Source: Clostridia bacterium
GTDB taxonomy: Bacteria > Bacillota > Clostridia > Christensenellales > CAG-314
DNA length: 64,000 bases
Direction of reading: 5' to 3'
NCBI GenBank assembly: GCA_028698585.1
Contig: JAQVWG010000003.1
Coordinates: 3,518 to 67,517 of the forward strand
Positions 16,458-32,016 of this stretch are shown here, in pieces. Positions within the stretch are counted from its first letter, which is position 1. Every line of letters starts with the position of its first letter. The position numbers were made by a program, and so were the translations under genes. The notes under the pieces are model-generated. The model saw only the letters and a list, made by a program, of their open reading frames with translations, searched no databases and was not told where the DNA came from.

Positions 16458-16964
16458 ATGAACAGATTCGCGAAAACAATTCTATGTTGTTATAATGCTA
16501 TCCCTACGATGGTCAAAAAAGTTGATAGACTGGTCTATAGCAAGGCAGTTAAGTCGCACAGTAACAGTTATGGTCATGGAAACACGCTATACCAGATGGA
16601 CAGAATTGTGTCCCTGCTCAATGTTAAGAACGACTTATTGCTTATGCGCAAGATTACCGATAAAGCGCTTGCTTGTCTGCCTGTTAAACAGAGAGTGTTG
16701 ATAGTTAGCAAGTTTTTCCATAACATGACGTGCGAGCAAATACAACAGGCAGTCAATGTGTCCATGCGCACGCTGTTCAGACAGATTAATGCCAGCGTCA
16801 ATTCGTTCGCTAGCGCACTGATTATAGAGGGATATGATAGAGAGTGGTTTATCTCTACCTATCTGTCCGAGCGGTGGATTAAACATATCTATAACACTTG
16901 TTGTGAAAAACAAGGTTTATGCGTACAACTACCACAAGAGCAGAGCATATTGGAAAGTGCATAA
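16458..16964 (+). CDS. Sigma-70 region-4-like HTH protein (candidate phage-type late regulator)
   Basis: 168 aa. The segment LPVKQRVLIVSKFFHNMTCEQIQQAVNVSMRTLFRQINASVNSF has the layout of sigma region 4 / ArpU- or DUF1492-type regulators. No region 2 is visible. Confidence 0.45.
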   Translation: MNRFAKTILCCYNAIPTMVKKVDRLVYSKAVKSHSNSYGHGNTLYQMDRIVSLLNVKNDLLLMRKITDKALACLPVKQRVLIVSKFFHNMTCEQIQQAVNVSMRTLFRQINASVNSFASALIIEGYDREWFISTYLSERWIKHIYNTCCEKQGLCVQLPQEQSILESA

Positions 16965-17092
16965 GATAACTCCTGTTAATAGTAAGCGTGAATTAACTGT
17001 GCAATAGATTGGGTTAGAGATAACGGTGCGTTAATTAATAAATGCTCATATAGTTGACAATATCTTAAGTGTGCAGACACATTGGTAAGATT

Positions 17093-17716: not shown

Positions 17717-18538
17717 TTACAGATAGTCGTCGAAGTATCTAGGCTGATTGGTAGTTGTGTCGGTAGACACTCCGTATCTATCGATTGAGGATTTATCCTT
17801 AATGGCACGTTTACGAGTAGGAATGAACACGACTGCCAGTATCACTAATAAAGGCAAAGTTATCAATAGAATTAACGTTGCCTGAACTGGATTGGACAAG
17901 TCGGCAGATAGTATGCTATTACTGTCTGTCTGGTCGGTGTTAGTTGCCGGAGTGTCGGGTTCATCAATGATAACCACAGCAGGTTGAGTGAGAGGGGTGG
18001 GGTGTAGACTGAATACGGGAACTGTAACTGCTGTTGCCTGACAGTAGCCTAAGTATCCTTGGAAATATACATAATACCACTCGTTGTACTGGGTTATTGC
18101 CTTACCATAGTAAGACATCGACTGACCGCTTACTGCCGTTACAAAGGCTGTGAGGGCTTCATTCGGAGATGGATATATCTTACAGCCGTGATTACCTGCT
18201 TGAATAAGTACCTTAGGGTAGAGTGGAATCAACGGTTTTTCGTAGACTTCTTGTACGCTGTCAATCAGAACGTATCCATTAAGTTTGGCAAAGTTAGCCT
18301 GTTCGTTCAGCAGTTCTACCTGATAGAATCCACCACTTATACCTACCACAGTAAGATAGTACGTGGGAATCAATGCGAACAGTTTACTAGTATTATCCGG
18401 CGCAGAGTAGAAGTACACATTGGTGTTCTCAATGCGAACATAGGGTGGAACCTGCTCTGTCTGTGCGTAGGCACTAAAGGGCAGGTAACACATAACGATT
18501 ATTGATAACATTGCACATACAACAGTTTTCATACGCAC
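17717..18538 (-). CDS. Secreted, C-terminally anchored protein with SH3b-like domains
   Basis: 273 aa. Signal peptide ends at ..FSAYAQTE. Two segments have an SH3b-like pattern (VRIENTNVYFYSAPDNTSKLFALIPTYYLTVVG..GGFYQVEL). TM is ATLILLITLPLLVILAVVFIP, followed by a cytoplasmic tail. Confidence 0.6.
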   Translation of the reverse strand: MRMKTVVCAMLSIIVMCYLPFSAYAQTEQVPPYVRIENTNVYFYSAPDNTSKLFALIPTYYLTVVGISGGFYQVELLNEQANFAKLNGYVLIDSVQEVYEKPLIPLYPKVLIQAGNHGCKIYPSPNEALTAFVTAVSGQSMSYYGKAITQYNEWYYVYFQGYLGYCQATAVTVPVFSLHPTPLTQPAVVIIDEPDTPATNTDQTDSNSILSADLSNPVQATLILLITLPLLVILAVVFIPTRKRAIKDKSSIDRYGVSTDTTTNQPRYFDDYL

Positions 18539-18663
18539 CGACTAAGCGCTATAACAGACGCTTGATTAGTGAATAAACACTAACACAGGCGATGAATGAC
18601 GTTTATGAGAAATAGTAGCGAAAGATAGCAAGTAATGGCTTATGCCAACGGGGAAAGGTAACG

Positions 18664-20094
18664 ATGAAAAGCACGGTTGAACGGATACTAGATATAGAGA
18701 GGGAACAGAAAAGAAGGCGACAGCAACCGCTGACGAACTACAACAAGGACAAAGTACATCCTAAACAGATGATGTTCCACAAGTGCCAAGCAGGCAATCG
18801 GTGGGTGTTCGGTGGTAATCGTAGCGGTAAGACGGAGTGTGGGGCAGTGGAGACGGTATGGTTATCTCGTGGTATACACCCATATAGACCCAACAGGCCA
18901 GATACGGTGTGTTTCGTGGTGTCGTTATCCAGTCAAGTAAGCCGTGAGGTAGCGCAACAAAAGATTCTATATTACCTAGACAAGCAGTATATAGCCGACA
19001 TCGTCATGGTTAGCGGTCGGCGAGACAGCGCCGAGTATGGCATTGTGGACTATATACTGGTCAAGAATGTTTATGGCGGGTTGAGTAAGATTTTTTTCAA
19101 ATCGTGCGAAGCGGGCAGAGAGAAGTTTCAGGGAGTATCCTTGGATTTCGTATGGTTTGACGAAGAGCCACCGCTAGATATATACAGCGAGTGCAAAATG
19201 CGTTTATTGGACCGAAAAGGATTCATTTATGGCACGATGACACCATTAAAAGGGTTGACATGGGTATATGAGCAGATATTCCTCAATGCACAACAAGATG
19301 ATGAAGTGTGGCATATCACTATGGAATGGGCAGATAACCCATATTTACCACAGGACGAAGTGCAACATTACACGCAGACTATGTCCACTGAGGAACTCAA
19401 GTCTCGCCGATACGGTGAGTTCTACTCTCAGAGTGGATTGGTATATAGCGAGTTTGACAGTACTGTACACGTAATTCAACCTTTTGAAGTGCCACATGAG
19501 TGGTATGACAATATTAGTATAGATCCCGGATTGAACAATCCTCTTTCCTGCCATTGGTATGCAGTTGACAGTGATGGTGTGGTGTATGTGATAGCCGAAC
19601 ATTATGAGGCGAAGCAAAGTGTTTCCTACCACGCTCGAAAAATCGAGCATATGTGCAACCAACTTGGCTGGCACCGTGATAGTAGTGGAAGAATAAGTGC
19701 GCTTATTGACAGTGCCAGTAACCAGCGCACTCTAGCGTCAAGCAAAAGTGTGGCTGAACTATTCTATGAGCAGAATATTGCGGTGAATACAAGGGTTAAT
19801 AAGGATTTGTTCAGTGGTATCAATAGAGTCAAGGCGTATCTCAAGCCCGAAGTGGGACAACCCAGATTATATATCTTTTCCTGCTGTGTCAACCTCATAA
19901 GAGAGTTCAAGAGTTACTGGTGGGGAAATGAGGACAGGCCTAAGAAGGTAGACGATCACGCCTTGGACGAATTGAGATATTATCTCAGTTCCAGACCAGA
20001 GGCGCACGTCCCATTGAATCCACCCAAGAGTGTAATCACGCTGGACAAAGAAAACCTATTAAGGAAACATCGGAGAGTACATAAACAGTCATAA
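18664..20094 (+). CDS. terL: Terminase large subunit
   Basis: 476 aa. Walker A-like GGNRSGKTE, Walker B-like LDFVWFDEEP, and C-terminal nuclease-type acidic blocks (SIDPGLNNP, DDHALDELRYY). Confidence 0.85.
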   Translation: MKSTVERILDIEREQKRRRQQPLTNYNKDKVHPKQMMFHKCQAGNRWVFGGNRSGKTECGAVETVWLSRGIHPYRPNRPDTVCFVVSLSSQVSREVAQQKILYYLDKQYIADIVMVSGRRDSAEYGIVDYILVKNVYGGLSKIFFKSCEAGREKFQGVSLDFVWFDEEPPLDIYSECKMRLLDRKGFIYGTMTPLKGLTWVYEQIFLNAQQDDEVWHITMEWADNPYLPQDEVQHYTQTMSTEELKSRRYGEFYSQSGLVYSEFDSTVHVIQPFEVPHEWYDNISIDPGLNNPLSCHWYAVDSDGVVYVIAEHYEAKQSVSYHARKIEHMCNQLGWHRDSSGRISALIDSASNQRTLASSKSVAELFYEQNIAVNTRVNKDLFSGINRVKAYLKPEVGQPRLYIFSCCVNLIREFKSYWWGNEDRPKKVDDHALDELRYYLSSRPEAHVPLNPPKSVITLDKENLLRKHRRVHKQS

Positions 20095-20159
20095 CAGTTG
20101 TCGACAGTAATCTCATGCCAGTTGTTGTAAATTATACCAATGGTATGATAATTAATGCT

Positions 20160-20405
20160 AATAACTACTTGCGTTATATGGCTAGTGGTCATAGCATGTT
20201 GCAACAGTTACAAGACAACGGTTAATGCATAATACTTTTATTTTACTGAATGTCGGTGATAGCACGGAAGTCGTCGGGTAATCGTGGCTCAATAACTACT
20301 TGTGTTATACGGCCAGTGGTCATAGCATGTTGCAACAGTTACAAGACAACGGCTGGTGCAAAAATACTGTTACTATTCTGTATCTCTGTGTAGAGCACGG
20401 CAGAT
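20160..20405. repeat. Tandem duplication, 2 x about 131 bp (unit starts 20160 and 20291); each copy contains the perfect 10-bp palindrome TGTTGCAACA
   Basis: The first 62 nt of each unit are nearly identical (4 substitutions); the rest is more diverged. Lies in the 493-bp gap after terL. Confidence 0.85.
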
Positions 20406-20587
20406 ATATAGAATTGTTGACCCCCGATTGTATCAGTAGTACGACACAGTGAATAAAATTACGACAATTGATAGGCTGTCCTCTATGCATTATCTACCTA
20501 TTTCCGACAGCGAACACAAAACACATATATTTTTGAGTAGATTTACCTATACACAGGCATCAATATTATTAAGGAGCAGTTATCTAA

Positions 20588-20851
20588 TTGACAAAAATTA
20601 AAGATAAATTATATAAGCGCGCGCTTGGTTACACCGTTAAGGAGAAGGCGGAGGATTACAGTGTAGTAGACGGAGAAATGCAACTGGTTAAGAAGCGCAT
20701 TATTACTAAACACATTCCACCCGATATAACGGCATACAAGATGATAGTGGACCAACAGATAGACTTAAGTGACTACACGGATGAGCACTTGGAGAGGGAA
20801 AAACAGCGATTATTGGAGCAATTAAGCACAAAAGGAGATAAAAATGACTAA
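20588..20851 (+). CDS. Terminase small subunit-like fragment (C-terminal part only)
   Basis: 87 aa. TTG start with AAGGAG 11 nt upstream. YKRALGYTVKE....VKKRIITKHIPPDITAYKMIV resembles the conserved ..A.GY.YEE...K..K.VPPDV.A block of Firmicute-phage TerS proteins as I recall them. No N-terminal HTH portion is present. Confidence 0.45.
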   Translation: MTKIKDKLYKRALGYTVKEKAEDYSVVDGEMQLVKKRIITKHIPPDITAYKMIVDQQIDLSDYTDEHLEREKQRLLEQLSTKGDKND

Positions 20852-22676
20852 CAATGATAAGTTCTACGGTGATTTAGTGCAAGAAATCAAAGAAGACTTT
20901 GAGCAACGACAACGGCAAAGGAGAGCATACGAGAATAGCTGGCAACTCAATATCAATTTTGTCTCAGGCAATCAATACTGCTCTGTTACGCCTCAAGGTG
21001 ATATTATTGAACAGGACAAGTATTATTACTGGCAGGAAAAACAAGTGTATAACCACATAGCGCCCATTGTGGAGACTAGAATGGCACGCCTGTCGCACAT
21101 TAGACCCAAGATGACTGTTAGGCCATTCTCCAACACAGATGAGGATATAGAGTCCAGTAAACTGGCAACCAAAATATTATGCGCGACAATGGAGTCTGTT
21201 AACTATGACAGGCTAATAGACAGTGCAACTGCGTGGAGCGAAGTTACGGGGACAGCATTCTATAAGGTAACGTGGGAGAGCCAATATGGACAAACACTTC
21301 TTGAGGATGGTAAGGAGTACAAGACAGGCGACGTAAGTATAACTGTATGTTCACCATTCGAGATATATCCTGACAGTAATGTGGCAGAGGACATAGAACA
21401 ATGCAACTCAATTATCCACGCTAAGGCGTATGATATCGCAGACATCAAGAGTATATGGGGTGTGGAAGTGCCAGGAGAAGATATCAAAGTGTTCGGTTAT
21501 GATGGTTCTGCATGTAATGGTGGATACGGATACAATTCTGCTACGCCGTTCGTGTGCGATGAGGTCAAAAAAAATCATGCAATCGTGATAGAAAGGTACA
21601 CTAAACCCTCACAGCAATACCCCAATGGGCAATTAACTATTATAGCTAGGGACAGCATACTGTATCACGGAGAGTTGCCATACATTGAGCACGGCATAAT
21701 TTATCCGTTCATTAAACAGGTATGCCATAGACAAGTAGGTTGCTTCTGGGGAAGTAGTATTGTGGAGCGCATTATTCCGCTTCAACGCAGTTATAACGCT
21801 ATCAAAAATAGGAAAAACGAGTTTCTTTCACGCATAGCAATGGGTGTGCTGACTGTGGAGGACGGCTCAGTAGATACAGACAATCTAGAGGAGGAGGGAC
21901 TATCCCCTGGAAAAGTGATTATATACCGGCAGGGTGCTAGTAAGCCTGCATTACTGGACGCAGGCAACGTGCCTAACGACTTCATGTATGAAGAGGATAG
22001 ATTGCTCAATGAGTTCATAGTCATATCAGGTGTCAGCGAACTAGCACGAAACTCCACTACTCCATCGCAGATAACCAGTGGCGTCGCACTGCAACTACTT
22101 ATTGAGCAGGACGAACAGCGCTTATCATCTACTGCTAATAATATCAAGATTGCCATTAAACAGATTGGTAAACACATAATCAATCTATATCGCCAGTATG
22201 CAACTGCACTAAGGCTAGCAAAGACTGTTAGCAATGACGGTAGTGTTGAGATATACTACTTTACTAACGCTGACCTAAGAAGCGATGATATCGTTTTCGA
22301 AACGGAGAACGAGATAACTGATAGCCCTGCCAACAGGCGAAATATCGTGATGGAACTATTGCGTTCAGGGTTATTACAGGACGAAAACGGTAAGATGAGA
22401 GAGAGCACCAAGGTCAAGGTAATGGAGATGTTGGGATTAGGCAACTGGGAGCATGCTAAGGATATCGAGAGCCTACACCTAGCTAGAGCAGACAAGGAGA
22501 ATCTAGAGATGACAACGGCTCAAGTGCCACTTACTGTCGATAACCATAACCTACATATTGATAGCCACATTGCTTATGTAATTGACATTAATAATCAGTT
22601 AAACGACAAGAGAAAGAGTGTGATTCTGGAGCATATAGCTATGCATAAGCAGTTGGCACAAGGGGGTATTGTATGA
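20844..22676 (+). CDS. Portal protein
   Basis: 610 aa. Start overlaps the upstream stop. Sits in the expected position between terminase and scaffold/capsid. N-terminal blocks are portal-like by recollection (SWQLNINFVSGNQY, NHIAPIVETRMARL). Confidence 0.75.
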   Translation: MTNNDKFYGDLVQEIKEDFEQRQRQRRAYENSWQLNINFVSGNQYCSVTPQGDIIEQDKYYYWQEKQVYNHIAPIVETRMARLSHIRPKMTVRPFSNTDEDIESSKLATKILCATMESVNYDRLIDSATAWSEVTGTAFYKVTWESQYGQTLLEDGKEYKTGDVSITVCSPFEIYPDSNVAEDIEQCNSIIHAKAYDIADIKSIWGVEVPGEDIKVFGYDGSACNGGYGYNSATPFVCDEVKKNHAIVIERYTKPSQQYPNGQLTIIARDSILYHGELPYIEHGIIYPFIKQVCHRQVGCFWGSSIVERIIPLQRSYNAIKNRKNEFLSRIAMGVLTVEDGSVDTDNLEEEGLSPGKVIIYRQGASKPALLDAGNVPNDFMYEEDRLLNEFIVISGVSELARNSTTPSQITSGVALQLLIEQDEQRLSSTANNIKIAIKQIGKHIINLYRQYATALRLAKTVSNDGSVEIYYFTNADLRSDDIVFETENEITDSPANRRNIVMELLRSGLLQDENGKMRESTKVKVMEMLGLGNWEHAKDIESLHLARADKENLEMTTAQVPLTVDNHNLHIDSHIAYVIDINNQLNDKRKSVILEHIAMHKQLAQGGIV

Positions 22677-23923
22677 AAAACGGCAAGTTCAAGAGTCATA
22701 CAGACCTAGTCAACAGTTATGATAATCTACAGAAGGCATTTACACGCAAGTGCCAGTATGTTAAGCAGTTGAGTAAACTGTTAACAGATGCAGATATACC
22801 GTTGCCGACCAATAGGAATAACCAGTTGAATATTGACAGCGATGTCGGCGCAGACTGTGGTGAAGGTGTGCATATTGGTGATGTTGATGTGTCTTGGCCT
22901 GTACATTATGACAACACCTTTGATAACGACAACACCGTTACTTGTGCAACCGAAGATACTGGAGGTGTTGTCGAACACAATCCAATAGATAATTTAATGC
23001 AAGCGCTGGACGAAAAGGATATTGCTACTATCAATAATGGTATAGACGCAGATGGTGACACTGTAGCTCGAAATAAGAAAAAAGGTATTACTGCGATCAA
23101 TTGCGATATAAACACAGACAGTAACTCTGTCGCTCAAGCACAAGAAATAGGTTGTACTTCAACTAGTATTGATACAGACGCAGACAGTGACGCCGTGGTA
23201 CAGGAGCAGGAGAAAAAGTGTTTAGCTACAATCAATAGTGATTCAGAAGCAGATAGTAACTCTGTCGCTCAAGCACAGGAAATAGGTTGCACTTCAACTA
23301 GTATTGATACAGACGCAGACAGTGACGCCGTGGTACACGAGCAGGAGAAGAAGTGTTTAGCTACAATCCATAGTGATATAGGCTCAGATAGTTACTCTGG
23401 CGTGCAGAATCAGGGAGCGACAGATTACACTGCAACTAATACCAATACAAACACGGATAGTAATGACGCAACGCAAAAGGGACAATCTTCGGTCGATACA
23501 CACATAGGCGCCTCGGCCGAAGTTGATTATATAAGTGGTACAAGCAGTCTGCCACCACGAGAGATGGACAAACAATCATTCTATAACAAGTATCCACTGG
23601 CAACATTGTTCAGCGATCAAATTGAAGCAGTATTGGACAACCCTGATGTTTCATTCTGCAATGACCGTAAAGAAGCGTTGCTCAATGTGTGTTGCGACAA
23701 GACTTTGCTGTATCATGCGCTGGCTGGCGACAAGGATTTTTGCGATTATATATGTAACAACGAACAGATTAAGCGCAGAATACTAGCTGATTACCTGATA
23801 GCGCTACAAAACAATCGTGTCGCACCGACAATTAAATCGGGGGCAAAGTTGCCACTATGTCCACCTCAAAGGCCCACAACTCTTAATGAAGCGAATAGAA
23901 TGGTCAAGCATTATATCGGCTAG
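22673..23923 (+). CDS. Scaffolding-like protein with an acidic repeat-containing centre
   Basis: 416 aa with an ATGA overlap to the portal gene. The N-terminus FKSHTDLVNSYDNLQKAFTRKCQ resembles scaffold N-termini. The D/S/T-rich middle contains a 45-aa tandem repeat. Positioned directly before the capsid gene. Confidence 0.55.
   Translation: MKNGKFKSHTDLVNSYDNLQKAFTRKCQYVKQLSKLLTDADIPLPTNRNNQLNIDSDVGADCGEGVHIGDVDVSWPVHYDNTFDNDNTVTCATEDTGGVVEHNPIDNLMQALDEKDIATINNGIDADGDTVARNKKKGITAINCDINTDSNSVAQAQEIGCTSTSIDTDADSDAVVQEQEKKCLATINSDSEADSNSVAQAQEIGCTSTSIDTDADSDAVVHEQEKKCLATIHSDIGSDSYSGVQNQGATDYTATNTNTNTDSNDATQKGQSSVDTHIGASAEVDYISGTSSLPPREMDKQSFYNKYPLATLFSDQIEAVLDNPDVSFCNDRKEALLNVCCDKTLLYHALAGDKDFCDYICNNEQIKRRILADYLIALQNNRVAPTIKSGAKLPLCPPQRPTTLNEANRMVKHYIG
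23113..23376 (+). repeat. In-frame tandem repeat, 2 x 135 bp (45 aa), inside the scaffold-like CDS
   Basis: ..DSNSVAQAQEIGCTSTSIDTDADSDAVV(Q/H)EQEKKCLATI(N/H)SD.. occurs twice. At the nucleotide level there are only a few substitutions. Confidence 0.9.
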
Positions 23924-24030
23924 GAGCAATCTTATATAACTATTGCTTATTAAGTGAATGTGGCACTAAACTATGCCGACACAGTACATTAAGATTTATT
24001 ACTATTGATGAATACGTGTTGGTTGGCGGT

Positions 24031-24057
24031 AGTTAAAGGGTGATACGCCCTTTAATT
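24031..24057 (+). promoter_or_regulatory. Stem-loop upstream of the capsid gene (arms AAAGGGTG / CGCCCTTT within a 12-bp stem)
   Basis: Inverted repeat read from the sequence. It shares arm sequence with the stem-loop at 25337-25379. Confidence 0.5.
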
Positions 24058-24156
24058 ACTGCTATGTGCGTACAGGTAACATTTGTACACACACGTTCGG
24101 CTACCCGTTAAGTGTGGTCAGAATCTAGAAGTAAATTAATTAACAAGGAGAATCAA

Positions 24157-25326
24157 ATGGTAACATTATCATCAGCAGACAATGCGCTCAAATCACTATA
24201 TCTCAATGTAGTGAGCGAACAACTCAATACCAAGACTAATCCTCTGCTCAACAGAATCGCACAGACCGAAAGTGACGTATGGGGTAAGGAAATAATCAAA
24301 CTAGCACCGTATGGCGTGAACGGTGGTATCGGAGCCGGAGGCGAAACGGACAATCTGCCCACTTCGGCTGAAAACAAGTATGCACGATTCGTATTAACGC
24401 TCAAGAATCTATATGGTACTATCGAGCTGTCGGATAAGGCAATCAGGGCGTCTCAAAACAATGCAGGCGCATTCGTCAACCTACTTAATGCAGAAATGGA
24501 CGGTCTGATTAAGGCCAGCAAGTTCAATTTTGGCCGTATGTTGTATGGAGACGGCACAGGCACACTGGCAACTATTGAATCAGTATCTGGCAACGTAATC
24601 ATTGTAGACAGTGTACAGTACCTAATGGAAGGTATGATGATCGATATCTGCACAAGTCTTGGTGTGGCTAGGTCGGGTTATACGTCAAGGCGAATAACAA
24701 GTATTGACAGAACAGACCTTGCAGTCACAGTGTCTGGTACAGCTATTGATGACGACGTAGTTGTCGCAACAGATATACTAGTAGTGCAGGGCAGTTATGG
24801 TAAAGAGCTGACTGGTCTTGGCGCAATATTCGGCAGTTCTGCTACCTTGTACGGCATAACAAGACAGGGTAACAACTGGCTGACACCATATACAGACACT
24901 ATGTCTACAGTAAGCGACGTAGACATACAGACAGCCATTGACCATGTAGAATCTGTCAGTGGAGGAGCAATCGACTTCATCGTATGCAGTTATGGTGTGC
25001 GCAGAGCATATCAAGCTTATTTAAGAACATCGGCGTCAAACATAGATGTACTTAATCTCGAAGGTGGCTATAAGGCAATATCATATAGTGGCATTCCTAT
25101 GGTAGCAGACAGATTCTGTCCGTCTAACACTATGTATCTACTGGATACTAAGGAGTTCAATCTGCACCAACTATGTGATTGGCGCTGGTTGGAGGGCGAA
25201 GAAGGACGCATACTCAAACAGAAGGCAGGTCAACCAGTATATACCGCAACATTAGTCAAATATGCTGATATGATATGTAACAAACCAATAGGTCAAGCAC
25301 AATTAACGAGTATCACAGAGGCATAG
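24157..25326 (+). CDS. Major capsid protein candidate (HK97-fold type)
   Basis: 389 aa from the ATG at 24157 (AAGGAG 6 nt upstream; the ORF-track start at 24112 lacks an RBS). Sits after the scaffold. The N-terminal ALKSLYLNVVSEQLN..NPLLNRI and G-rich loop resemble capsid families by recollection. Confidence 0.7.
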   Translation: MVTLSSADNALKSLYLNVVSEQLNTKTNPLLNRIAQTESDVWGKEIIKLAPYGVNGGIGAGGETDNLPTSAENKYARFVLTLKNLYGTIELSDKAIRASQNNAGAFVNLLNAEMDGLIKASKFNFGRMLYGDGTGTLATIESVSGNVIIVDSVQYLMEGMMIDICTSLGVARSGYTSRRITSIDRTDLAVTVSGTAIDDDVVVATDILVVQGSYGKELTGLGAIFGSSATLYGITRQGNNWLTPYTDTMSTVSDVDIQTAIDHVESVSGGAIDFIVCSYGVRRAYQAYLRTSASNIDVLNLEGGYKAISYSGIPMVADRFCPSNTMYLLDTKEFNLHQLCDWRWLEGEEGRILKQKAGQPVYTATLVKYADMICNKPIGQAQLTSITEA

Positions 25327-25336
25327 TTACTTATCG

Positions 25337-25379
25337 AAAGGGTGCAGGATACCTAATAATAGTGCTTCTTGCGCCCTTT
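25337..25379 (+). terminator. Stem-loop immediately after the capsid gene (13-bp stem aaagggtgcagga/tcttgcgcccttt, 17-nt loop)
   Basis: Read from the sequence, 11 nt after the stop. No strong U-tract, so it may be a partial terminator or an mRNA stabiliser. Confidence 0.45.
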
Positions 25380-25433
25380 ACCTTCGTTTAACGACAACAT
25401 AAAATAAAGGACATATTATATAAGGACGTATAT

Positions 25434-25754
25434 ATGGATAACATGATAGAAATTGTGAGCGATGTATTCGACATTGCCTGCTGGATACGTTCGCTGGGTA
25501 GTTACAAGGTGGTATACAACTTAGACAAAAGAGTTTTTCAGGTAAGAGATGCATACAGTAATGCGTTATGCGTAACGCTATATGACAGACTGGACTACAG
25601 AAGTGTCTATACGGTGTATAGCACTATGCGACAACATGCAGATGAGATATTCGCACTGGTAGAACGGCATAATGCTCAACTAGACAGGCAGGCAGAATAT
25701 AATGCACAGGTCAGATACGAGCAAACACTAGAGAATATAAGGAGAATGATATAA
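25434..25754 (+). CDS. Hypothetical protein in the phage-like cluster
   Basis: 106 aa. Its stop overlaps the next start by 1 nt (TAATG). Confidence 0.5.
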   Translation: MDNMIEIVSDVFDIACWIRSLGSYKVVYNLDKRVFQVRDAYSNALCVTLYDRLDYRSVYTVYSTMRQHADEIFALVERHNAQLDRQAEYNAQVRYEQTLENIRRMI

Positions 25755-26329
25755 TGAAAATGAGTCAATGTATACAACTGGCAGATTTGTTACTAAACAC
25801 GGAAATCGACACAGCGCTGTTTAGCAAGACGCAGATGGACGACCAGTTATCTACGGCTCTTGCTAACAAACCTTTATCACTGCTTGTCAGTTGCGCCAAC
25901 ATAGTGCTAGCTGAGATTGCCAACGAGTATGTGCCATTGGTGTATAAAGAAGATGTAAATTGTGTTAACGGCACAGTAGCGTACAGCACTTTTGCTAAAG
26001 ATATGTTATCTGTACTGCGTATAAGTGACAGTAACGGCGCAAGAGTGAGATACAGATACAGACCGGACGGGATAGATATAGACAGTAATAAAGTGTGCAC
26101 AGTGGTGTACTCATATAGACCTATATATGCTGATTTCCTTGATGATGTACAGGTAGGCAAGTCTGTTATAACTGAGCGAATAATAGCATTCGGAACTATT
26201 GCCGAGTACTACCTATTGACAGGTAAATATGAGGACGCAGTGTTGTGGGATAAGCGATATAAGGACAGTCTGCTGGCTGTATCAGGCAAAAAGGGCGAGA
26301 TTAGAGTCAAATCTCGACCGTTAATCTAG
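25754..26329 (+). CDS. Hypothetical protein (head-tail connector/adaptor suggested by position only)
   Basis: 191 aa, translationally coupled to the upstream ORF. No motif recognised. Confidence 0.5.
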   Translation: MKMSQCIQLADLLLNTEIDTALFSKTQMDDQLSTALANKPLSLLVSCANIVLAEIANEYVPLVYKEDVNCVNGTVAYSTFAKDMLSVLRISDSNGARVRYRYRPDGIDIDSNKVCTVVYSYRPIYADFLDDVQVGKSVITERIIAFGTIAEYYLLTGKYEDAVLWDKRYKDSLLAVSGKKGEIRVKSRPLI

Positions 26330-26348
26330 TGCGCGGGGAGAATGTATA

Positions 26349-27821
26349 ATGATTTATAATAAACCAATGCCTCTTAAACAGCGCACAATTAAGAGTACAC
26401 GGATAACATTCAGTAACCAAATAGATACGGTTACCGATCAGTTGGTATTAGCACAATCAGTAGGTGTAATCAGTTATAATACCAGTGGCGCCAAGGGCAG
26501 TCTATTGTCTGTGGGCGGAATGGGTAGATTATACTTAACTGATAGTATAACCAATCAACCAATAGCAGTAGACGCACCTATAGGATTAACGTATGTCAAG
26601 GGGTGGTATTATCGCAAATATAATGCGTTAAACTGTGTTTATGATGATAGTTTAATTATGCTGTGTTCTAACTATTATCTATACAAGTTGTCAGTAAGTG
26701 CGCCCGAAAACGGCTGGACGCAGATAGATAACTCACACTTCGACGCTATGCCTTGTGCAATTAACTACAAGTTGGGTGACGATGATATACTACTGTTGTC
26801 CAGTAGTCAAGATGACTTAACCGTATATGACGGCACAACAATCAGTACCGTTAGTACTGCGCCTAAAATAACGTCAATGTGCGTGCATTACGAAAGGCTG
26901 TTCGCAACAGGCGAAGACAACATACTGTGGTTTAGTGATGACTTGGACCCGACCAACTGGAATATCGGTATAGATCAGGCAGGTTATATCGAGTTCGCAG
27001 ATAACAAGGGAAAGCTACTTAAAGTTGTTAGTTTCCTAGATTATCTATACATATTCAGGCAATATGGTATAACTAGATTGACAGCGTATTCCTCTCAAGA
27101 GGATTTCACTGTTACGCAGTTATATACTACCAGTGCCGAGATAGTCGCAGATACGGTAGTGGTTTGCGGCGACAGAATACATTTCCTTGCAACTGACGGA
27201 CTCTATTCCTTTGACGGTATTAATACCACAAGAATACTGTCTAATCTAGATAATCTATTACAACGCGTCAACAGTAGTGCATGTGCCGAATATGCAGACG
27301 GTAAATATATGCTTGCATGCAAGTTGAATTACAATGACAGCGTGTCGATTGACAGTCTAGCTGATAATTATGCTAACAACACTTTGCTCAATTATGACTT
27401 TGTCAAAGGCATAGTGACTCTGTGTAGAGGTATGGATGTAAGACATATCACATTGTCTTATTATCAAGGGTTGCAAGGCATATTCATACTCGGTGGTCAA
27501 TATGCAGACAAGTTGCTTGTGCAGGAGGATAGTGGGTGCGTACTTGATAAGGCGCTACCCAAGTGTCATATCTGTCCAATAACTAACCTCGGCAACAGCG
27601 AAAAAGATAAAATTATAGACAAAATAACGTTGATGAGTATATATAACTGTACTCTATGTATCTGCGCGGATAATGTATGGCACTACTACGACATAACAGG
27701 CAGTAATAAGTACGTAACCCTACCCCTTGGGCTAATAGGCAACTTGTTCCAGTTCGCATTGATGAGCAATCAGGCTAGAATGGATGTCAAGTCCATTACT
27801 GTAGTTTTCTCGCTGTACTAA
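26349..27821 (+). CDS. Hypothetical large structural-type protein
   Basis: 490 aa with GGGGAG upstream. Rich in beta-strand-like repeats (..LYIFRQYGITRLT.., ..IHFLATDGLYSFDG..). No family recognised. Confidence 0.55.
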   Translation: MIYNKPMPLKQRTIKSTRITFSNQIDTVTDQLVLAQSVGVISYNTSGAKGSLLSVGGMGRLYLTDSITNQPIAVDAPIGLTYVKGWYYRKYNALNCVYDDSLIMLCSNYYLYKLSVSAPENGWTQIDNSHFDAMPCAINYKLGDDDILLLSSSQDDLTVYDGTTISTVSTAPKITSMCVHYERLFATGEDNILWFSDDLDPTNWNIGIDQAGYIEFADNKGKLLKVVSFLDYLYIFRQYGITRLTAYSSQEDFTVTQLYTTSAEIVADTVVVCGDRIHFLATDGLYSFDGINTTRILSNLDNLLQRVNSSACAEYADGKYMLACKLNYNDSVSIDSLADNYANNTLLNYDFVKGIVTLCRGMDVRHITLSYYQGLQGIFILGGQYADKLLVQEDSGCVLDKALPKCHICPITNLGNSEKDKIIDKITLMSIYNCTLCICADNVWHYYDITGSNKYVTLPLGLIGNLFQFALMSNQARMDVKSITVVFSLY

Positions 27822-27835
27822 GGGAGAGTAAAATA

Positions 27836-28996
27836 ATGGATTATGGAAAACTAGCATATATGAAAGTTGAGGACATCAATCGAAGACTCAATAATTATGC
27901 CAAAATTGTCGCAAGTAATAAGGGCAGCCGACTGGTATTCAACAGACAATGCATAAGTATAAGCACAGTCAACAACAGTATCGACATGTGGACGTATTTA
28001 CCCACAACTACCGATATAGAGATAGAGTTGATTGCGTCCACACTTGCCACTGACAGTGTTAGTATCAATGCTCGTATACTGCTCAACGATGTGGTGTGCT
28101 TGCCATTTACATGTCAGTTGCATAATGGCATTGTGGGACTAATCAACTGTGGTACGACCGTAACACAGGTGCAAGGGCTGTGCCATATAACATTACAATT
28201 CGATACCAATGTAGACTTCGAGTTAAACAGTCTTATGTTATCAGTATATGGGCAAGCATTGCAGAAGTACCAACGTAAACCCACACTGTGCTACACCAAT
28301 GATAGCGGAGTGGACTACTACGGTATAGTGCAGATACACACGCTGACTGTATATCAAACGAATCTGAGCACTGCGCCTACTATTATCGACCTAGGTCAAC
28401 TTGACATAAATCAAGCGCAAATACAATTCATCAATGGCGTGTTACATCTTATATACACAATCAATGGGAAATTGTACGTGTCAAGTTGTGTGGGAACAAT
28501 AGGTAGTGGAGTACTTATAGCCAGCAATATATCTCAGTTTTGTTGTTACAGCGTAAATGGGGTGCTGTATGTGTTTATAGTTGTCAAGAACAAACTGTAT
28601 TTAATTACAGTCGACAGTCAATATCATGCGTGTGCGCCCATACCGATAACACTGCCATACACTAATGCGCTAGACAGTATCAGTTGTTATGTTACAGCAG
28701 ACTCTATCTATTTAGTTACACAAGACAATAAGATTACTAGGCTGTATCGAACGAGCAGTGTTCAACAACCATTCGATATGTTGTCTGCACTTAGTTATGG
28801 ACAGCAGAAGGGTTGTTACGCAACCGATACACATCTGTACTGCACAATAGTAGTTAATTCGCTGTGTCTAAGCACTGACACGCTACTGACAGATTGTAGT
28901 ACAACTGCGCTCAGCAAGTGTTACTGTGAGGACGCATTACAGACAGGAGCAAACAGACTGATATTACAAGACGGTCTGACAATTCATTCGAATTAG
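27836..28996 (+). CDS. Hypothetical Cys-rich structural-type protein
   Basis: 386 aa with GGGAGAG upstream. Repeated motif NG.LY.. / ..LYL.T (INGKLYVSS, VNGVLYVFIV, NKLYLITV, DSIYLVTQ). Confidence 0.55.
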   Translation: MDYGKLAYMKVEDINRRLNNYAKIVASNKGSRLVFNRQCISISTVNNSIDMWTYLPTTTDIEIELIASTLATDSVSINARILLNDVVCLPFTCQLHNGIVGLINCGTTVTQVQGLCHITLQFDTNVDFELNSLMLSVYGQALQKYQRKPTLCYTNDSGVDYYGIVQIHTLTVYQTNLSTAPTIIDLGQLDINQAQIQFINGVLHLIYTINGKLYVSSCVGTIGSGVLIASNISQFCCYSVNGVLYVFIVVKNKLYLITVDSQYHACAPIPITLPYTNALDSISCYVTADSIYLVTQDNKITRLYRTSSVQQPFDMLSALSYGQQKGCYATDTHLYCTIVVNSLCLSTDTLLTDCSTTALSKCYCEDALQTGANRLILQDGLTIHSN

Positions 28997-29005
28997 GAGG
29001 ATTAG

Positions 29006-30037
29006 ATGGCAATAACAATAACCAATAGCATACCCAACAATATTAAACTCAAGGAAAAAGCAATTGCATTAGTAGGTGATGAGATAAGCAACAGACCACA
29101 GGTTAAGGATAATGGATCTAACGCGCATCAGTCAACAACTACCGATGTTAAAGGCGTATACAGTGAGTTGGTTAAGAAACTAGATAATGTTGAACATAAG
29201 TATTCGACAGACTATATTGAACCTGAGATAGAGTATGACCAAACACTGGGATTAGAAAAAATTGAGTATGAAATGCCGACCAGAGAGGAGGCACACATTA
29301 GGGCAGAACAGATACTTGAACCTAATTATAACAAGGACAAGGCCAAGGTCGAAAGTAATTTGAACAAGGCGCAAGTGCAGGCAGATACCCGAATATCACA
29401 GATAAGGCAGGAAACACAACAGAAGATAGATACACTTAATGACAATTTTAAGAATCAACTGGAGGACATCAAACGAAATGCGATAGATAGGGGTGTCGCA
29501 CGCTCATCTATCATTAACAGTGAACGTGATAATGCACATCAAGAGGTCGAGAGCGTAGCCGACACTTTACATTCACAGGCGGAGGGAGAGATTGTGCAGT
29601 TAGAAAAGGGCATACAAGAGGCACGACAACAGGCTCAGCAGGCGCTTGATACGTTAAAGCAGAGTTATGACAGCGAAGTAGTCAATCAGATAACAGAGAT
29701 TCTACAACAGGCAATTAAGGACAAAGTCAATGCAATCAAGTACAATAACACAGTAAACGAAAGGGAGACTAAATATCAAATATCTCGGCAGAATGCCATA
29801 TCAAAGGCTAATGCAGATGAACTAGACAGGCAGAATACAATCTATGATTTGATTTCCCAATATGGTGTAGATACAGTTAACAGGCGCAAATATGAGGAAA
29901 AATACCAGATTGTTAAACAGTATCTTGACACATTAAGTAAGTACGACGCGCTTAAACTATGCCAGTCGACCAGCGCCATTAAACAGCATTTAGGCCCTAG
30001 TTATAACGCCCTAATTGAGTATCTGATGAATAAATGA
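29006..30037 (+). CDS. Hypothetical coiled-coil protein
   Basis: 343 aa with AGGAGG upstream. Long Q/E/K/D-rich heptad-like stretches. Last gene of the cluster, followed by a strong terminator. Confidence 0.55.
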   Translation: MAITITNSIPNNIKLKEKAIALVGDEISNRPQVKDNGSNAHQSTTTDVKGVYSELVKKLDNVEHKYSTDYIEPEIEYDQTLGLEKIEYEMPTREEAHIRAEQILEPNYNKDKAKVESNLNKAQVQADTRISQIRQETQQKIDTLNDNFKNQLEDIKRNAIDRGVARSSIINSERDNAHQEVESVADTLHSQAEGEIVQLEKGIQEARQQAQQALDTLKQSYDSEVVNQITEILQQAIKDKVNAIKYNNTVNERETKYQISRQNAISKANADELDRQNTIYDLISQYGVDTVNRRKYEEKYQIVKQYLDTLSKYDALKLCQSTSAIKQHLGPSYNALIEYLMNK

Positions 30038-30110
30038 TACTGCTCTTACTAGTGTAGTTATATGAGCAGTGGAAATAAAGATATCGTATGCATTACATAA
30101 CTATATACGG

Positions 30111-30144
30111 ACAGTGCCTGAGAGGAAATTATCTCAGGCACTGT
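30111..30144. terminator. Bidirectional terminator hairpin (13-bp perfect stem acagtgcctgaga/tctcaggcactgt)
   Basis: Read from the sequence, between convergent genes 29006..30037 (+) and 30172..31149 (-). TAATTTAT follows on the + strand. Confidence 0.8.
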
Positions 30145-30171
30145 TAATTTATATTACTGATAAAGTGTGCG

Positions 30172-31149
30172 TTACTCAATAATTATGTTAGAAACGTCGG
30201 TCGTGGTGTCTAGTTTAATGCGTCTAGTGAAAAACTTGCGATTATCCAGTTGATAATATTCGACTAGAGCGATGCACTTGAACTGATAGAGCATATAGAC
30301 ACATGCAAGTGTGAGGATGATATTGACGATGGCTAAATTGATATTGAACAGAAGTGATACATAGTTGATGACGACAGATACAACAGTGAATGTAACCATC
30401 AACAGAACGTATTTACAAAATATGCTCCAAAAACAGTTGAGTACCTTCTGCATGCCTACTTTGAGCGCTTTTTTAATCAAATAGCCGTTATTGACATACT
30501 CTATTGGCCAGAATGAATATAGCGCCATTCTCGTCATATATACACAGATACACAGTATCAATGCCAACGGTACCGTTATTATGCCTAACGGTAGGAATAT
30601 AATCAGAGATGCTAGTGAACCAAATATGATGAATATGTCTAGCCATACTGTACTCAGTAGGTGAATCAAAGAGAACTTACATGACTCGCCGAAATGCTTG
30701 AGCAGATACCACAAAAAATGTTTCTTACTACTGGTGTCCATAAAATCCTTACAATAACTAGTTATGGGTATATACACCAGATTATTGGTAAAGCGCAACA
30801 AGAACAAGACTATCGCACCACTTAAGTATGTCAGCGCTAAACTTCCCGCTGTAAGACTGGTTTGGCTATATGCCAGTACGAAATTATCATATGCCTGTAT
30901 CAGATAATCGGCAATCTGTTGCGCGTTAATTCGCAGAGATTGTCCATCAGTCAGTAGAGTTATAACTTGATTGATTGTATACGCCAAGCCACTCTGTGTC
31001 AGTAGTATGTGTAGCTTGACAACTATAGGATAGGTCGCAAGTGCGAACACGCCCAATATGATAACGGTGATGAGCAGTTGAGTTAAGAAACTCAGCAAAA
31101 AAGCTCTAAAAGTGTTGTTTGATAATCTTATTGATTTACTTAACTTCAT
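30172..31149 (-). CDS. Polytopic membrane protein, unknown function
   Basis: 325 aa with at least 6 hydrophobic segments, 3 nt downstream of the 31153..32016 gene. Confidence 0.6.
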   Translation of the reverse strand: MKLSKSIRLSNNTFRAFLLSFLTQLLITVIILGVFALATYPIVVKLHILLTQSGLAYTINQVITLLTDGQSLRINAQQIADYLIQAYDNFVLAYSQTSLTAGSLALTYLSGAIVLFLLRFTNNLVYIPITSYCKDFMDTSSKKHFLWYLLKHFGESCKFSLIHLLSTVWLDIFIIFGSLASLIIFLPLGIITVPLALILCICVYMTRMALYSFWPIEYVNNGYLIKKALKVGMQKVLNCFWSIFCKYVLLMVTFTVVSVVINYVSLLFNINLAIVNIILTLACVYMLYQFKCIALVEYYQLDNRKFFTRRIKLDTTTDVSNIIIE

Positions 31150-31152
31150 AAT

Positions 31153-32016
31153 CTACCTATTAAATAACGAGGTCGACAAATCTCGGCGCTGTCCGTCTGT
31201 AAGCGAGATGTAGGTCTTGAGCCCAAAAATGCAGAACATCATCAACCAGAAGAGGAATAACATCGTTAGAATAATTGTGTGGTATATTGGCAGATACCAA
31301 CTATATGTAAGGAAAAGATACTTAGATATCGAAGCCACACCTATGCTGAGCATGAATCCCGCCAGTATTTTGGCATACGTGCTCCAGTATTTACCGGCAA
31401 CTAACTGTATAGAATAGCTCACGGCTATGTTGAAGTTATAGTTATCCATCAATTTACTCGGAATGGCGCAGGCAGTCATGGTGTAGGCATAGAGAATGTA
31501 GAATATGTCCACCATGAACATTACGGCAGATATTATAGTTATAGATAATCCACGCAAACCTACTTTATAGCAGGAAAACACTACTGCCGAGGTAATCAAA
31601 TTGAAACACTCGATATAAGTGGCCATAAGCAGGAAATACAGCATTACAACCAGTAATATATTGAAATTGTAGCTCGATAGACGTCTGTATCGCCGTATGC
31701 CCAGACGCATGTGTTTCTCAATCATGGGGAAAAGAACGCAACAGGCAATGAACAGAACTATCCACCCAATTACCCATATCCACCAACTGCTCGAGAAGTT
31801 GAGAAACGAGAAGTATTTATATGCGCCATTATAGTAATCTGTGCCGATAAAACCGTCTCCTTGTGTGAAAAGCATATAGAAGAAGTCAACAAATGTGTAA
31901 AAACTACGGTTGGTACAGGATAAGCCCAACAAGAACGAAGGCACTATGCATAATGGCAACAGATAAAAAAAGTTGCGAAAAAAATAACTCAATGATGAGG
32001 TGCTTTGTTGTCTCAT
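31153..32016 (-). CDS. Polytopic membrane protein, unknown function
   Basis: 287 aa with at least 6 hydrophobic segments. Forms an operon-like pair with 30172..31149. Confidence 0.6.
   Translation of the reverse strand: MRQQSTSSLSYFFRNFFYLLPLCIVPSFLLGLSCTNRSFYTFVDFFYMLFTQGDGFIGTDYYNGAYKYFSFLNFSSSWWIWVIGWIVLFIACCVLFPMIEKHMRLGIRRYRRLSSYNFNILLVVMLYFLLMATYIECFNLITSAVVFSCYKVGLRGLSITIISAVMFMVDIFYILYAYTMTACAIPSKLMDNYNFNIAVSYSIQLVAGKYWSTYAKILAGFMLSIGVASISKYLFLTYSWYLPIYHTIILTMLFLFWLMMFCIFGLKTYISLTDGQRRDLSTSLFNR

Follow-up and report, generated by a model that had tools for sequence, protein, structure and literature searches.

A conserved podovirus-derived gene cluster in Christensenellales-type chromosomes that probably makes GTA-like particles

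RcGTA-type GTAs of Alphaproteobacteria are siphovirus-like, with an HK97-type prohead protease, a tape measure and a long tail, and PBSX of Bacillus subtilis, which acts as a bacteriocin, is myovirus-like, spans about 28 kb and has a contractile tail as well as repressor and lysis genes of its own. Phage satellites are mobile, rely on the tails of a helper and possess integrase, regulatory and replication modules. FpGTA of Faecalibacterium prausnitzii produces 40-nm particles with 8.4-8.9-kb host DNA, and the same study also saw Christensenellaceae DNA (4.1 and 6.3 kb) packaged in a GTA-like manner, with no locus identified (Nat Commun 2026, PMC12946183). Here, we investigated a cluster of phage-type genes (18664-30037) in a 64-kb window (the whole stretch of DNA that was analyzed) and compared it with these systems. 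FpGTA, compared by published layout and annotations, is the closest known system and has nearly the same architecture: both are chromosomal ten-gene operons of about 10-11 kb in gut Clostridia and of podovirus type, with TerL, portal, a scaffold-position gene and the major capsid protein (MCP), with the nozzle encoded by the third and a coiled-coil protein by the fifth gene after MCP, with a TerS that has no DNA-binding domain, without integrase or replication genes and with lysis genes outside the operon (locus II in FpGTA; here, none in the cluster). The fifth gene encodes an abundant virion protein annotated as 'TolA' in FpGTA, whereas here it encodes the DUF7934 protein p343. Likewise, MCP is annotated as N4-gp56 family in FpGTA whereas only NF033394 capsid_maj_Podo scores here, the scaffold-position gene has a Prp-like annotation in FpGTA but no Pfam match here, and TerS is found upstream of TerL in FpGTA but between TerL and portal here. 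Unlike FpGTA, the cluster has companion genes for a sigma-r4-like regulator, for SH3b-type membrane proteins and for multi-pass membrane proteins. FpGTA has been shown to form particles and to package DNA, while the present cluster is known from its genes.

RcGTA has in common with the cluster phage-derived head and packaging genes, vertical inheritance across a large clade, slow evolution, purifying selection and a TerS without DNA-binding specificity, and its accessory and lysis genes are located elsewhere in the genome. However, the cluster contains no protease, its portal is of the P22 type and its nozzle of the podovirus type, and there is no sequence relationship to RcGTA beyond shared folds. 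As is the case for PBSX, the cluster is a Gram-positive chromosomal phage-like element unable to propagate, and host-DNA packaging, which we infer for the cluster, would be a further likeness; the contractile tail, repressor and lysis genes of PBSX have no counterpart in the cluster. The closest deposited phages (24-31% identity only) are Jasminevirus-type podoviruses of Actinobacteria (Arthrobacter phage Jasmine, Microbacterium phage Shocker), which show the same order of TerL, small ORFs, portal, scaffold-position gene and MCP. These are complete phages whose 45-47-kb genomes include genes for tailspike, endolysin and replication and whose hosts belong to a different phylum, and the identities of 28-31% for MCP and 22-25% for portal, over at least 95% of the length, are far too low for a recent origin.

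According to the ORF listing, the cluster consists of ten co-oriented intact ORFs (Table 1). A first-pass annotation made from the sequence had counted eleven; co-orientation and intactness held, but the count did not, and the ORFs named in that annotation also sum to ten. Its other descriptions of the locus were borne out: the stop/start overlaps are at 20851/20844, 22676/22673 and 25754/25754, the flanks are housekeeping genes (pda and lgt on the left, serA-serC-rnj on the right), and base and codon usage is close to that of the flanks (GC 0.42 in the cluster and 0.44 in the flanks, codon-frequency correlation 0.88). The calls of TerL, a TerS-like protein, portal, a scaffold-like protein and capsid were confirmed by Pfam, PHROG and NCBIfam matches together with the scaffold-position profile of the relatives. 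Among the five ORFs considered unassignable, the one of 490 aa turned out to encode a podovirus tail nozzle and that of 343 aa a DUF7934 protein, while those of 106, 191 and 386 aa have candidate roles. The operon from TerL to p343 lacks its own sigma-70-like promoter, and the terminator-like hairpin is located between the convergent genes of p343 and tm325. The unit is probably larger than the ten genes and extends over 13959-32016: a regulator accompanies the cluster, as do two SH3b-type and two multi-pass membrane proteins.

Table 1. Features of the cluster and of the genes accompanying it (positions in the window).
Feature	Position	Strand	Description and evidence
m614	13959..15803	-	Large secreted protein with C-terminal membrane anchor; signal peptide and C-terminal TM in translation
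sig168	16458..16964	+	Regulator with sigma-70 region-4-like helix-turn-helix; Pfam Sigma70_r4_2 3.5e-4
m273	17717..18538	-	Signal peptide, bacterial SH3 domain(s), C-terminal membrane anchor; divergent from TerL
TerL	18664..20094	+	Large terminase (packaging ATPase and nuclease), 476 aa; Pfam Terminase_6N 1.6e-14, Terminase_6C 1.4e-5; phrog_2 2.9e-27
s87	20588..20851	+	Truncated TerS-like protein, 87 aa; phrog_309 (TerS) 1.2e-5
Portal	20844..22676	+	P22 type, 610 aa; Pfam P22_portal 1.8e-18; phrog_156 3.9e-36
Scaffolding-position protein	22673..23923	+	416 aa, acidic; family F2 profile hmmsearch 1e-26
MCP	24157..25326	+	Major capsid protein, 389 aa; phrog_14242 2.4e-64; NCBIfam NF033394 capsid_maj_Podo 3.5e-85
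p106	25434..25754	+	Small conserved protein, 106 aa; in 55/80 loci at same position
p191	25754..26329	+	Conserved protein directly before nozzle, 191 aa; in 69/80 loci
Nozzle p490	26349..27821	+	Tail nozzle/hub of short-tailed (podovirus) particle, 490 aa; AlphaFold2 and Foldseek
p386	27836..28996	+	Fast-evolving, lineage-variable protein after nozzle, 386 aa
p343	29006..30037	+	DUF7934 protein, last operon gene, 343 aa; Pfam DUF7934 6e-29
Terminator-like hairpin	30110..30145	+	Strong, closing the operon; 14-bp stem with 7 GC pairs, then T-rich tail
tm325 and tm287	30172..32016	-	Pair of multi-pass membrane proteins; tm325, f16 family profile 2e-13; tm287, own family

In TerL (dN/dS 0.05), the two Walker motifs (A and B) and the acidic motifs of the nuclease are at least 95% conserved among 69 species-level sequences, and dN/dS of portal is 0.03. 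The TerS-like protein s87 is present in 73 of 80 loci and has no recognisable DNA-binding domain; 36 of 40 family members match phrog_309 (best E 1.8e-9), the matches are confined to profile positions ~198-240 of 319, and the family has the conserved motif GY..E..EEY...G...L.K+KVT.K..PPD..A.K. A member of family F2 is found between portal and MCP in all 80 loci; position and acidic composition suggest that the 416-aa ORF, which an in-frame tandem duplication of 135 bp (23115-23399) has lengthened here, encodes the scaffold. MCP (dN/dS 0.07) reaches 286 bits against NF033394 (cutoff 80); its ORF opens at a GTG at 24112 (404 aa), and a 100% identical database protein starts at M16, i.e. at the position given in Table 1. 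For p106, which is a candidate head-completion or connector protein, there was no match in Pfam or PHROG. The adaptor gp4 of P22 precedes the hub gp10, and p191 (dN/dS 0.11, no informative match in PHROGs or PDB) is by its position a candidate head-to-tail adaptor.

A structure search, which the first-pass annotation had proposed, was run on the 490-aa ORF and confirmed the short-tailed particle type. The AlphaFold2 model (mean pLDDT 90.3, pTM 0.88) has a nozzle fold with the Pa223 tail as best Foldseek match in the PDB (9nwi_Y, E 2.3e-21, TM 0.73), followed by VP1 (8zkk_O), GP4 (8jov_A), P22 gp10 (8u10_1), SU10 and T7 gp12, and the family profile matches SU10 (7z47_G). The module therefore encodes a head and a short tail. 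The next protein, p386, without matches in PHROG, is merely 22-30% identical in genomes in which MCP is 69-75% identical, and in other lineages it is absent or exchanged for unrelated ORFs of 340-390 aa and 660-770 aa, suggesting a tail-tip or receptor-binding protein as candidate role. The model of p343 (58 of 80 loci; pLDDT 84) is a long alpha-helical coiled-coil hairpin (helices 93-161 and 167-286) with no significant match in the PDB, and its best viral match is an uncharacterised gut podovirus protein (E 2.4e-5).

Regarding the accompanying genes, sig168 occupies its position in 21 of 80 loci as well as in loci L083 and L084 and is missing from the flank in most lineages. It also matches PHROG transcription regulator/activator families, its family profile matches region 4 of SigF (PDB 8jzt, 6.7e-5), and promoter-like sites are found at sig168, making it a candidate activator of the operon. 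The gene of m273 (median dN/dS 0.15) lies directly upstream of TerL in 58 of 80 loci, and its homologue in L084 matches Pfam SH3_3 (3.8e-9). L083 and L084 have homologues of m614 in the corresponding place, and hhalign aligned the C-terminal 170 columns of this family with 'f14' (probability 95.8%, E 7.6e-9), a family of 830-890-aa proteins that the Borkfalkia-type lineage encodes upstream of its cluster. The tm325/tm287 pair follows the cluster, in either orientation, in L083-L085 and in the Borkfalkia-type lineage and is absent from other lineages.

The cluster was compared at the same locus in relatives and dN/dS was estimated, as the first-pass annotation had suggested. A search for presence of the cluster in species-representative genomes yielded 105 relatives, and in the 80 species-level loci examined, each from a different assembly, the gene order was the same and chromosomal neighbours were shared. 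All seven core genes were kept in 56 of 56 loci spanning the region. A gene was broken in only two loci; most of the genomes are MAGs, and assembly quality could account for these two apparent disruptions or for some of the genes that look intact. Median dN/dS ranged from 0.03 to 0.35 across all eleven families and, judged from these sequences, every core gene is under purifying selection. Core identity correlated with the identity of flanking housekeeping genes (Spearman about 0.6-0.9). Between the window and its relatives, TerL and MCP were 56-63% identical; in these loci, the values were 54-56% for gyrB, 57-68% for gyrA and 46-51% for rnj. The divergence of TerL and MCP is about as slow as that of gyrB and gyrA from the same genomes. 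The pda...serA-serC-rnj locus is common to genomes with 70-75% MCP identity, and distant lineages keep an rnj-omt-U32 or gyrBA neighbourhood.

The first-pass annotation had concluded that the cluster is not a functional prophage and had offered a decaying remnant, a domesticated particle module (GTA-like or of short-tailed podovirus type) and a capsid-forming satellite as options. Its conclusion is supported by the conserved order, purifying selection, the TerL motifs and the divergence tracking flanking housekeeping genes, and the comparative data together with the tail nozzle favour the second option over the other two. A non-functional podovirus prophage remnant, stripped of its integrase, replication and lysis modules, would account for the truncated TerS, for the cluster fragments called viral in IMG/VR and for the scanned ORFs, among which no lysogeny, replication or lysis genes were found. 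Yet a remnant would be patchy and gather frameshifts, while here the core genes are complete in every spanning locus, dN/dS is low, the catalytic motifs of TerL are conserved in 69 species, and TerL and MCP match gyrB and gyrA in conservation, which leaves hardly any probability for decay. A small capsid-type module also resembles capsid-forming satellites (cf-PICIs), which share with the cluster a small self-contained head and packaging gene set without lysis genes; the cluster has its own TerL and TerS-like gene and might be a mobile island that uses a helper phage for induction, tails and lysis and preferentially packages itself. We consider this very unlikely, because it carries none of the satellite genes, encodes its own nozzle and is positionally fixed between housekeeping flanks relative to pda, serA, rnj and gyrBA in loci from 80 different assemblies, with a divergence that tracks host genes. 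In agreement with the first-pass annotation, a Pfam scan of the 40 larger ORFs of the window detected no families for integrase, repressor, replication, protease, long tail or lysis; no excisionase, primase/replicase or att-like boundary was found and no tRNA gene in the window, and in relatives a scan of ten recurrent flank families gave no integrase, replication or lysis genes.

The particle might instead be domesticated for a purpose other than transfer, such as PBSX-like killing, lysis-linked release of DNA or public goods, or a defence decoy, with the DNA not being productively delivered. PBSX, in which host DNA is packaged and the action is nevertheless that of a bacteriocin, is a precedent for this, and the authors of the FpGTA study raise the same caveat (PMC12946183). 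In addition, no recognisable tail fibre, receptor-binding protein or recipient-side function was found in the cluster or the 64-kb window, and classical GTAs have nothing equivalent to the conserved membrane proteins of SH3b type that adjoin the operon. However, TerL, the TerS-like protein and portal are strongly constrained, which indicates selection for DNA packaging as such; a contractile apparatus for killing is not part of podovirus-type particles, and the fast-evolving p386 fits a receptor-binding role. We therefore regard a non-transfer purpose as a minor, though appreciable, possibility. The reading we prefer, with reasonable though not high confidence, is that of a podovirus-derived domesticated gene set fixed in the Christensenellales-type chromosome and making small DNA-filled, short-tailed GTA-like particles. 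Dozens of related species inherit the cluster like ordinary chromosomal genes and hence it probably makes such particles; DNA packaging and transfer are deduced from the genes.

In the GTA-like mechanism we propose, a host-side signal would switch on sig168, which would drive the operon from TerL to p343, as suggested by the promoter-like sites at sig168 and the missing sigma-70-like promoter of the operon. Portal, scaffold and MCP would build a procapsid without protease, and TerL, assisted by the TerS remnant, would fill the head by a headful mechanism. Because this remnant has no DNA-recognition part, the cargo would be non-specific host DNA, in analogy to RcGTA and FpGTA. The candidate connector and adaptor proteins p106 and p191 and the nozzle, whose fold is seen in the model, would close the head, and p386 and p343 may complete the tail tip or internal cargo. 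Release would depend on lysis genes from another part of the genome, as is the case for locus II of FpGTA; holin or endolysin genes are found neither in the cluster nor in the 64-kb window. The SH3b-type and multi-pass membrane proteins would act as conserved partners. The Christensenellales-type cluster is an intact and probably GTA-like gene set akin to FpGTA, in a group for which the previous paper gave packaging of Christensenellaceae DNA without a locus.

The cluster consists of ten co-oriented ORFs and not of eleven, as counted in the first-pass annotation, whose own list also sums to ten; the stop/start overlaps described there (20844/20851, 22673/22676 and 25754) were confirmed. In profile searches TerL matched Terminase_6N/6C and phrog_2, the portal was of the P22 type (P22_portal, 1.8e-18) and the major capsid protein (MCP) matched phrog_14242 (2.4e-64) and the NCBIfam family NF033394, capsid_maj_Podo (3.5e-85; 286 bits at a cutoff of 80). 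The identities originally assigned to TerL, portal, capsid and the TerS-like 87-aa ORF (s87) are borne out by these profile matches, that of s87 being weak. The last ORF (p343) matched DUF7934 (6e-29). The family of the acidic 416-aa ORF is placed between portal and MCP in every relative (scaffold position); compared with a family median of ~229 aa, this ORF is enlarged here by an in-frame 135-bp tandem duplication.

Features of the cluster and its surroundings (positions in nucleotides of the window)
Feature	Position	Strand	Description
Cluster	18664-30037	+	Ten ORFs of 476 (TerL), 87 (s87), 610 (portal), 416 (scaffold position), 404 (MCP), 106 (p106), 191 (p191), 490 (nozzle), 386 (p386) and 343 aa (p343), in this order
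MCP	likely start 24157	+	389 aa instead of 404
Scaffold duplication	23115-23399	+	135-bp unit, 2.1 copies
m614 (family f14)			Large secreted, membrane-anchored protein; hhalign probability 95.8%
sig168			Regulator; family profile matches sigma region 4 (PDB 8jzt, 6.7e-5)
m273			SH3b-type, membrane-anchored, divergent from TerL; 58/80 loci; SH3_3 at 3.8e-9 in one homologue
tm287 and tm325 (family f16)			Downstream of the operon; pair of multi-pass membrane proteins
Tandem repeat	17092-17617		sig168-m273 gap; 119-bp unit, ~four copies, 93-94% identity between full copies
Direct repeats	20160-20232 and 20291-20363		TerL-to-s87 gap; 73 nt, 90% identical
Hydrolase and gyrB-gyrA	1182-9672		Alpha/beta-hydrolase and gyrase genes, within ~10-17 kb of the cluster
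SSB-domain protein	10413-11081	-	Long N-terminal extension; matches uncharacterised phrog_26861 (1e-31)
Downstream region	39883-46985		BspA-type leucine-rich-repeat surface protein, 820 aa; sigma factor, 230 aa, - strand, phrog_351 at 1.6e-39; 926-aa ORF without Pfam or PHROG match

The structure search proposed at the first pass was run on the 490-aa ORF and returned a virion protein, a tail nozzle. Its AlphaFold2 model (mean pLDDT 90, pTM 0.88) had the Pa223 tail nozzle/hub as best Foldseek match (E 2e-21, TM 0.73), followed by other nozzle/hub proteins of short-tailed phages (VP1, GP4, P22 gp10, SU10 and T7 gp12). Since this ORF has the nozzle fold, the module specifies the core of a podovirus tail as well as a head. 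P22-/Jasmine-like podovirus modules combine a P22-type portal, an HK97-fold MCP and a beta-propeller nozzle without prohead protease or tape measure; the cluster, with its P22-type portal, podovirus-family MCP and tail nozzle and with no protease or long-tail family matches, has the composition of a podovirus structural module. The model of p343 is a long helical hairpin (AlphaFold2, pLDDT 84) with no significant match in the PDB; the homologue search yielded 8 proteins only, and the single viral match, weak to modest, was an uncharacterised gut podovirus protein. Pfam/PHROG scans gave no matches for p106 and p191, and for p191 the family profile against the PDB and the per-member PHROG scan were both empty; judged solely by their position before the nozzle, the two are candidate connector/adaptor proteins. 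No PHROG matches were obtained for p386 and other variable ORFs after the nozzle, and p386 evolves much faster than the other cluster genes (22-30% identity where the MCP has 69-75%).

Thirty-six of 40 members of the s87 family matched the TerS family phrog_309, aligning only with positions ~198-240 of a profile with 319 positions; the family showed no HTH. As the match is confined to this part of the profile, we read the s87 family, from sequence, as an apparent TerS remnant without the N-terminal DNA-recognition part; a separate TerS may be encoded elsewhere in the genome. A small terminase lacking a sequence-specific DNA-binding domain is a hallmark of GTAs, in whose particles random host DNA is packed as pieces that are shorter than the encoding locus. 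In 69 TerL sequences the Walker A, Walker B and nuclease motifs show conservation of at least 95%. DNA packaging is probably retained, given the strong constraint on TerL, portal and TerS remnant alike, and the apparent loss of the TerS DNA-recognition part, by comparison with the alphaproteobacterial RcGTA and the Faecalibacterium FpGTA, suggests that it would be non-specific headful packaging of host DNA.

MCP relatives number in the thousands, all of them from genomes of uncultured Clostridia or of Christensenellales type, on contigs that often measure 0.1-1 Mb; a search of cluster representatives gave 2967 clusters at E <=1e-3. A scan with one genome per species gave 105 relatives, and 80 loci were examined, each from a different assembly; the carriers, at least 80 genomes at species level, come from the guts of animals that include humans, ruminants and birds. 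Family profiles revealed the same order at all 80 loci, i.e. TerL, s87, portal, scaffold, MCP, (p106), p191, nozzle, (variable) and DUF7934, and all seven core genes were present wherever the contig spanned the region (56/56 loci). A broken gene occurred in two loci only. In L022 (~1-5400) TerL measures only 153 aa and two paralogous ORFs (~510-530 aa) lie upstream, and in L018 (2663-4600) the portal is split into ORFs of 364 and 285 aa; this apparent damage may be genuine or an artefact of MAG assembly. Nei-Gojobori dN/dS, an estimate also proposed at the first pass, was determined for sixteen close pairs and indicated purifying selection, with medians from 0.03 to 0.35 (portal 0.03, TerL 0.05, MCP 0.07, DUF7934 0.09, p191 0.11, nozzle 0.12, m273 0.15, s87 0.18, scaffold 0.25, sig168 0.27 and p106 0.35).

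The recurrent flank families scanned were housekeeping or without Pfam match, and the set differs from lineage to lineage. Members of a lineage share their flanks, and flank divergence is there correlated with core-gene divergence (Spearman ~0.6-0.9). When the window is compared with distant relatives, TerL and MCP have 56-63% identity; at the same loci the values are 54-56% for gyrB, 57-68% for gyrA and 46-51% for RNase J. Three closer genomes (MCP 69-75%) carry the same block, and the search for the same locus in relatives, as suggested earlier, recovered the serA-serC-rnj right flank in two of the three and pda on the left in one. The very distant locus L043 keeps rnj-omt-U32 downstream. 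The hydrolase and gyrB genes of the window are also found near the cluster in the distant loci L045, L053 and L055-L057, on the other side, with gyrA where the contig reaches. An ancestral chromosomal neighbourhood of the cluster near gyrBA is suggested. The cluster is a chromosomal set of phage-like structural genes, vertically inherited and under purifying selection, as is characteristic of a GTA.

Several other origins of such a gene set were considered. Of the components of a functional temperate prophage (integrase/recombinase, repressor, replication genes, lysis cassette, attachment site) none was detected in the window. The Pfam scan of its 40 larger ORFs contained no integrase, repressor, replication, protease, long-tail or lysis families, which upholds the absence of lysogeny, replication, protease, long-tail and lysis genes reported in the first-pass annotation; ten recurrent flank families from other loci likewise held no replication, integration or lysogeny-control genes. 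The flanks had been described as housekeeping genes and the base and codon usage of the cluster as no different from theirs, and both statements hold: the other large ORFs with Pfam matches were housekeeping only (pda, lgt, serA and serC as named before, and glpK, gyrB/gyrA, RNase J, U32 peptidase, tyrS, recX and transporters), and GC content and codon use of the cluster were measured as close to those of the flanks. There were no tRNA genes in the 64-kb window and no RNA family in an Rfam scan of positions 13000-32500. An active prophage is unsupported by the data. A decaying prophage remnant is ruled out by the data on conservation, selection and synteny. Capsid-forming satellites of the cf-PICI type have an integrase, an AlpA-type regulator and a primase/replication module flanking the capsid genes and occupy variable insertion sites, whereas the cluster lacks all of these genes and its chromosomal position is conserved; conservation, selection and synteny also speak against a satellite, and this reading was rejected.

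The observations agree with a particle-forming system that derives from a podovirus, was domesticated and is inherited vertically, the reading already preferred at the first pass and now supported and sharpened by conservation, selection and the nozzle fold. Neither a lysis gene nor a recognisable receptor-binding protein was found in the cluster or elsewhere in the window, so that release and delivery are hypothetical; a role of the particles other than transfer, like that of PBSX, is a serious alternative.

Among deposited phages, Jasminevirus-type actinophage podoviruses come closest (24-31% identity, similar gene order). An IMG/VR scan with a single protein retrieved only 8 fragments, all of the same chromosomal cluster. 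One of these, locus L086 (IMGVR_UViG_3300024272_000420, 6583-16463), is as usual from TerL to MCP and differs downstream, with a 946-aa helicase-like ORF (phrog_16694, 1e-60) and no profile matches to p106, p191 or nozzle. Virus-prediction pipelines call the locus viral, and recognising the cluster keeps host genes from being taken for phage. Besides the SSB-domain gene of the window, an SSB gene is present at L084 (1-177), directly left of the conserved block despite different outer flanks. The genes at the downstream region listed in the table appear unrelated to the cluster.

Five more genes (m614, sig168, m273, tm325 and tm287) accompany the operon in the window lineage and a Borkfalkia-type lineage, and at L084 they are retained although the outer flanks are replaced. 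A terminator with a 14-bp stem follows the DUF7934 gene. No sigma-70-like promoter was found upstream of TerL, whereas promoter-like sites precede sig168; such promoter evidence is weak, as promoter-like counts overall were not above shuffles. A TGACATAA-like motif lies in the 150 nt before TerL in L016-L067 and other loci of many lineages, including high-GC ones, and in one lineage TATAATACTATAAT and AAAGTCTTT boxes accompany it; the motif may be a regulatory site under conservation. The 119-bp unit in the sig168-m273 gap was found nowhere else in the window or the fetched loci. The TerL-to-s87 gap is unusually long (494 bp), while in most other lineages the genes abut or overlap; at L083 the TerS-like protein is extended at its N terminus and occupies the gap. 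Both sets of repeats are local and lineage-specific.

FpGTA, the first podovirus-like GTA, described in January 2026, is a 10.5-kb operon of ten genes that include TerL, portal, a scaffold-position gene, MCP and a TerS without DNA-binding domain; counted from MCP, the nozzle gene comes third and that of an abundant coiled-coil 'TolA' protein fifth (PMC12946183). Its 40-nm particles contain 8.4-8.9 kb of host DNA, and fibres and lysis genes reside in a second locus (PMC12946183). No second locus of this type, with tail fibres, holin and endolysin, was seen among the scanned ORFs of the 64-kb window. Compared by position and annotation only (RCH50852-RCH50844 versus the window ORFs), both systems have the order TerL, portal, scaffold position, MCP, x, x, nozzle, x, coiled-coil. 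They differ in the MCP, annotated N4-gp56 in FpGTA (RCH50849.1) whereas that of the window scores only NF033394 (NCBIfam, E <=0.01), in the scaffold-position gene, Prp-like in FpGTA and without such a match here, and in the placement of the TerS-like gene. Looking up the MCP clusters for a link to FpGTA gave 'Clostridia bacterium' as the only named entries. FpGTA is the only described close analogue, with particles seen there while the present cluster is known from genes alone, and a literature search found no other published description of such a cluster in the Christensenellales-type group.

To our knowledge, GTAs are known in detail from very few lineages, and the cluster is probably a further podovirus-like GTA-like element, widely and deeply conserved, whose candidate regulators and partners form a defined set. 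For human faeces, Christensenellaceae DNA was reported to undergo GTA-like packaging, with no locus named (QANA01, 6.3 kb; HGM11616, 4.1 kb), and the cluster is a concrete candidate for the genes behind it (PMC12946183). A more far-reaching joint reading, which we offer tentatively and hold to be somewhat doubtful, is that a Jasmine-like podovirus was domesticated once, anciently, at the base of a large part of Christensenellales, that the module evolves as slowly as gyrB/gyrA with its own sigma-region-4-type switch and SH3b-type envelope partners, and that it is the genetic basis of the Christensenellaceae GTA-like packaging in human gut viromes. If true, it would be a Bacillota counterpart of the clade-wide alphaproteobacterial RcGTA, independent of FpGTA. 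Christensenellales are a heritable, health-associated gut group. If active, the cluster would be a major route of gene flow within them, and clade-wide GTA domestication would not be peculiar to Alphaproteobacteria.
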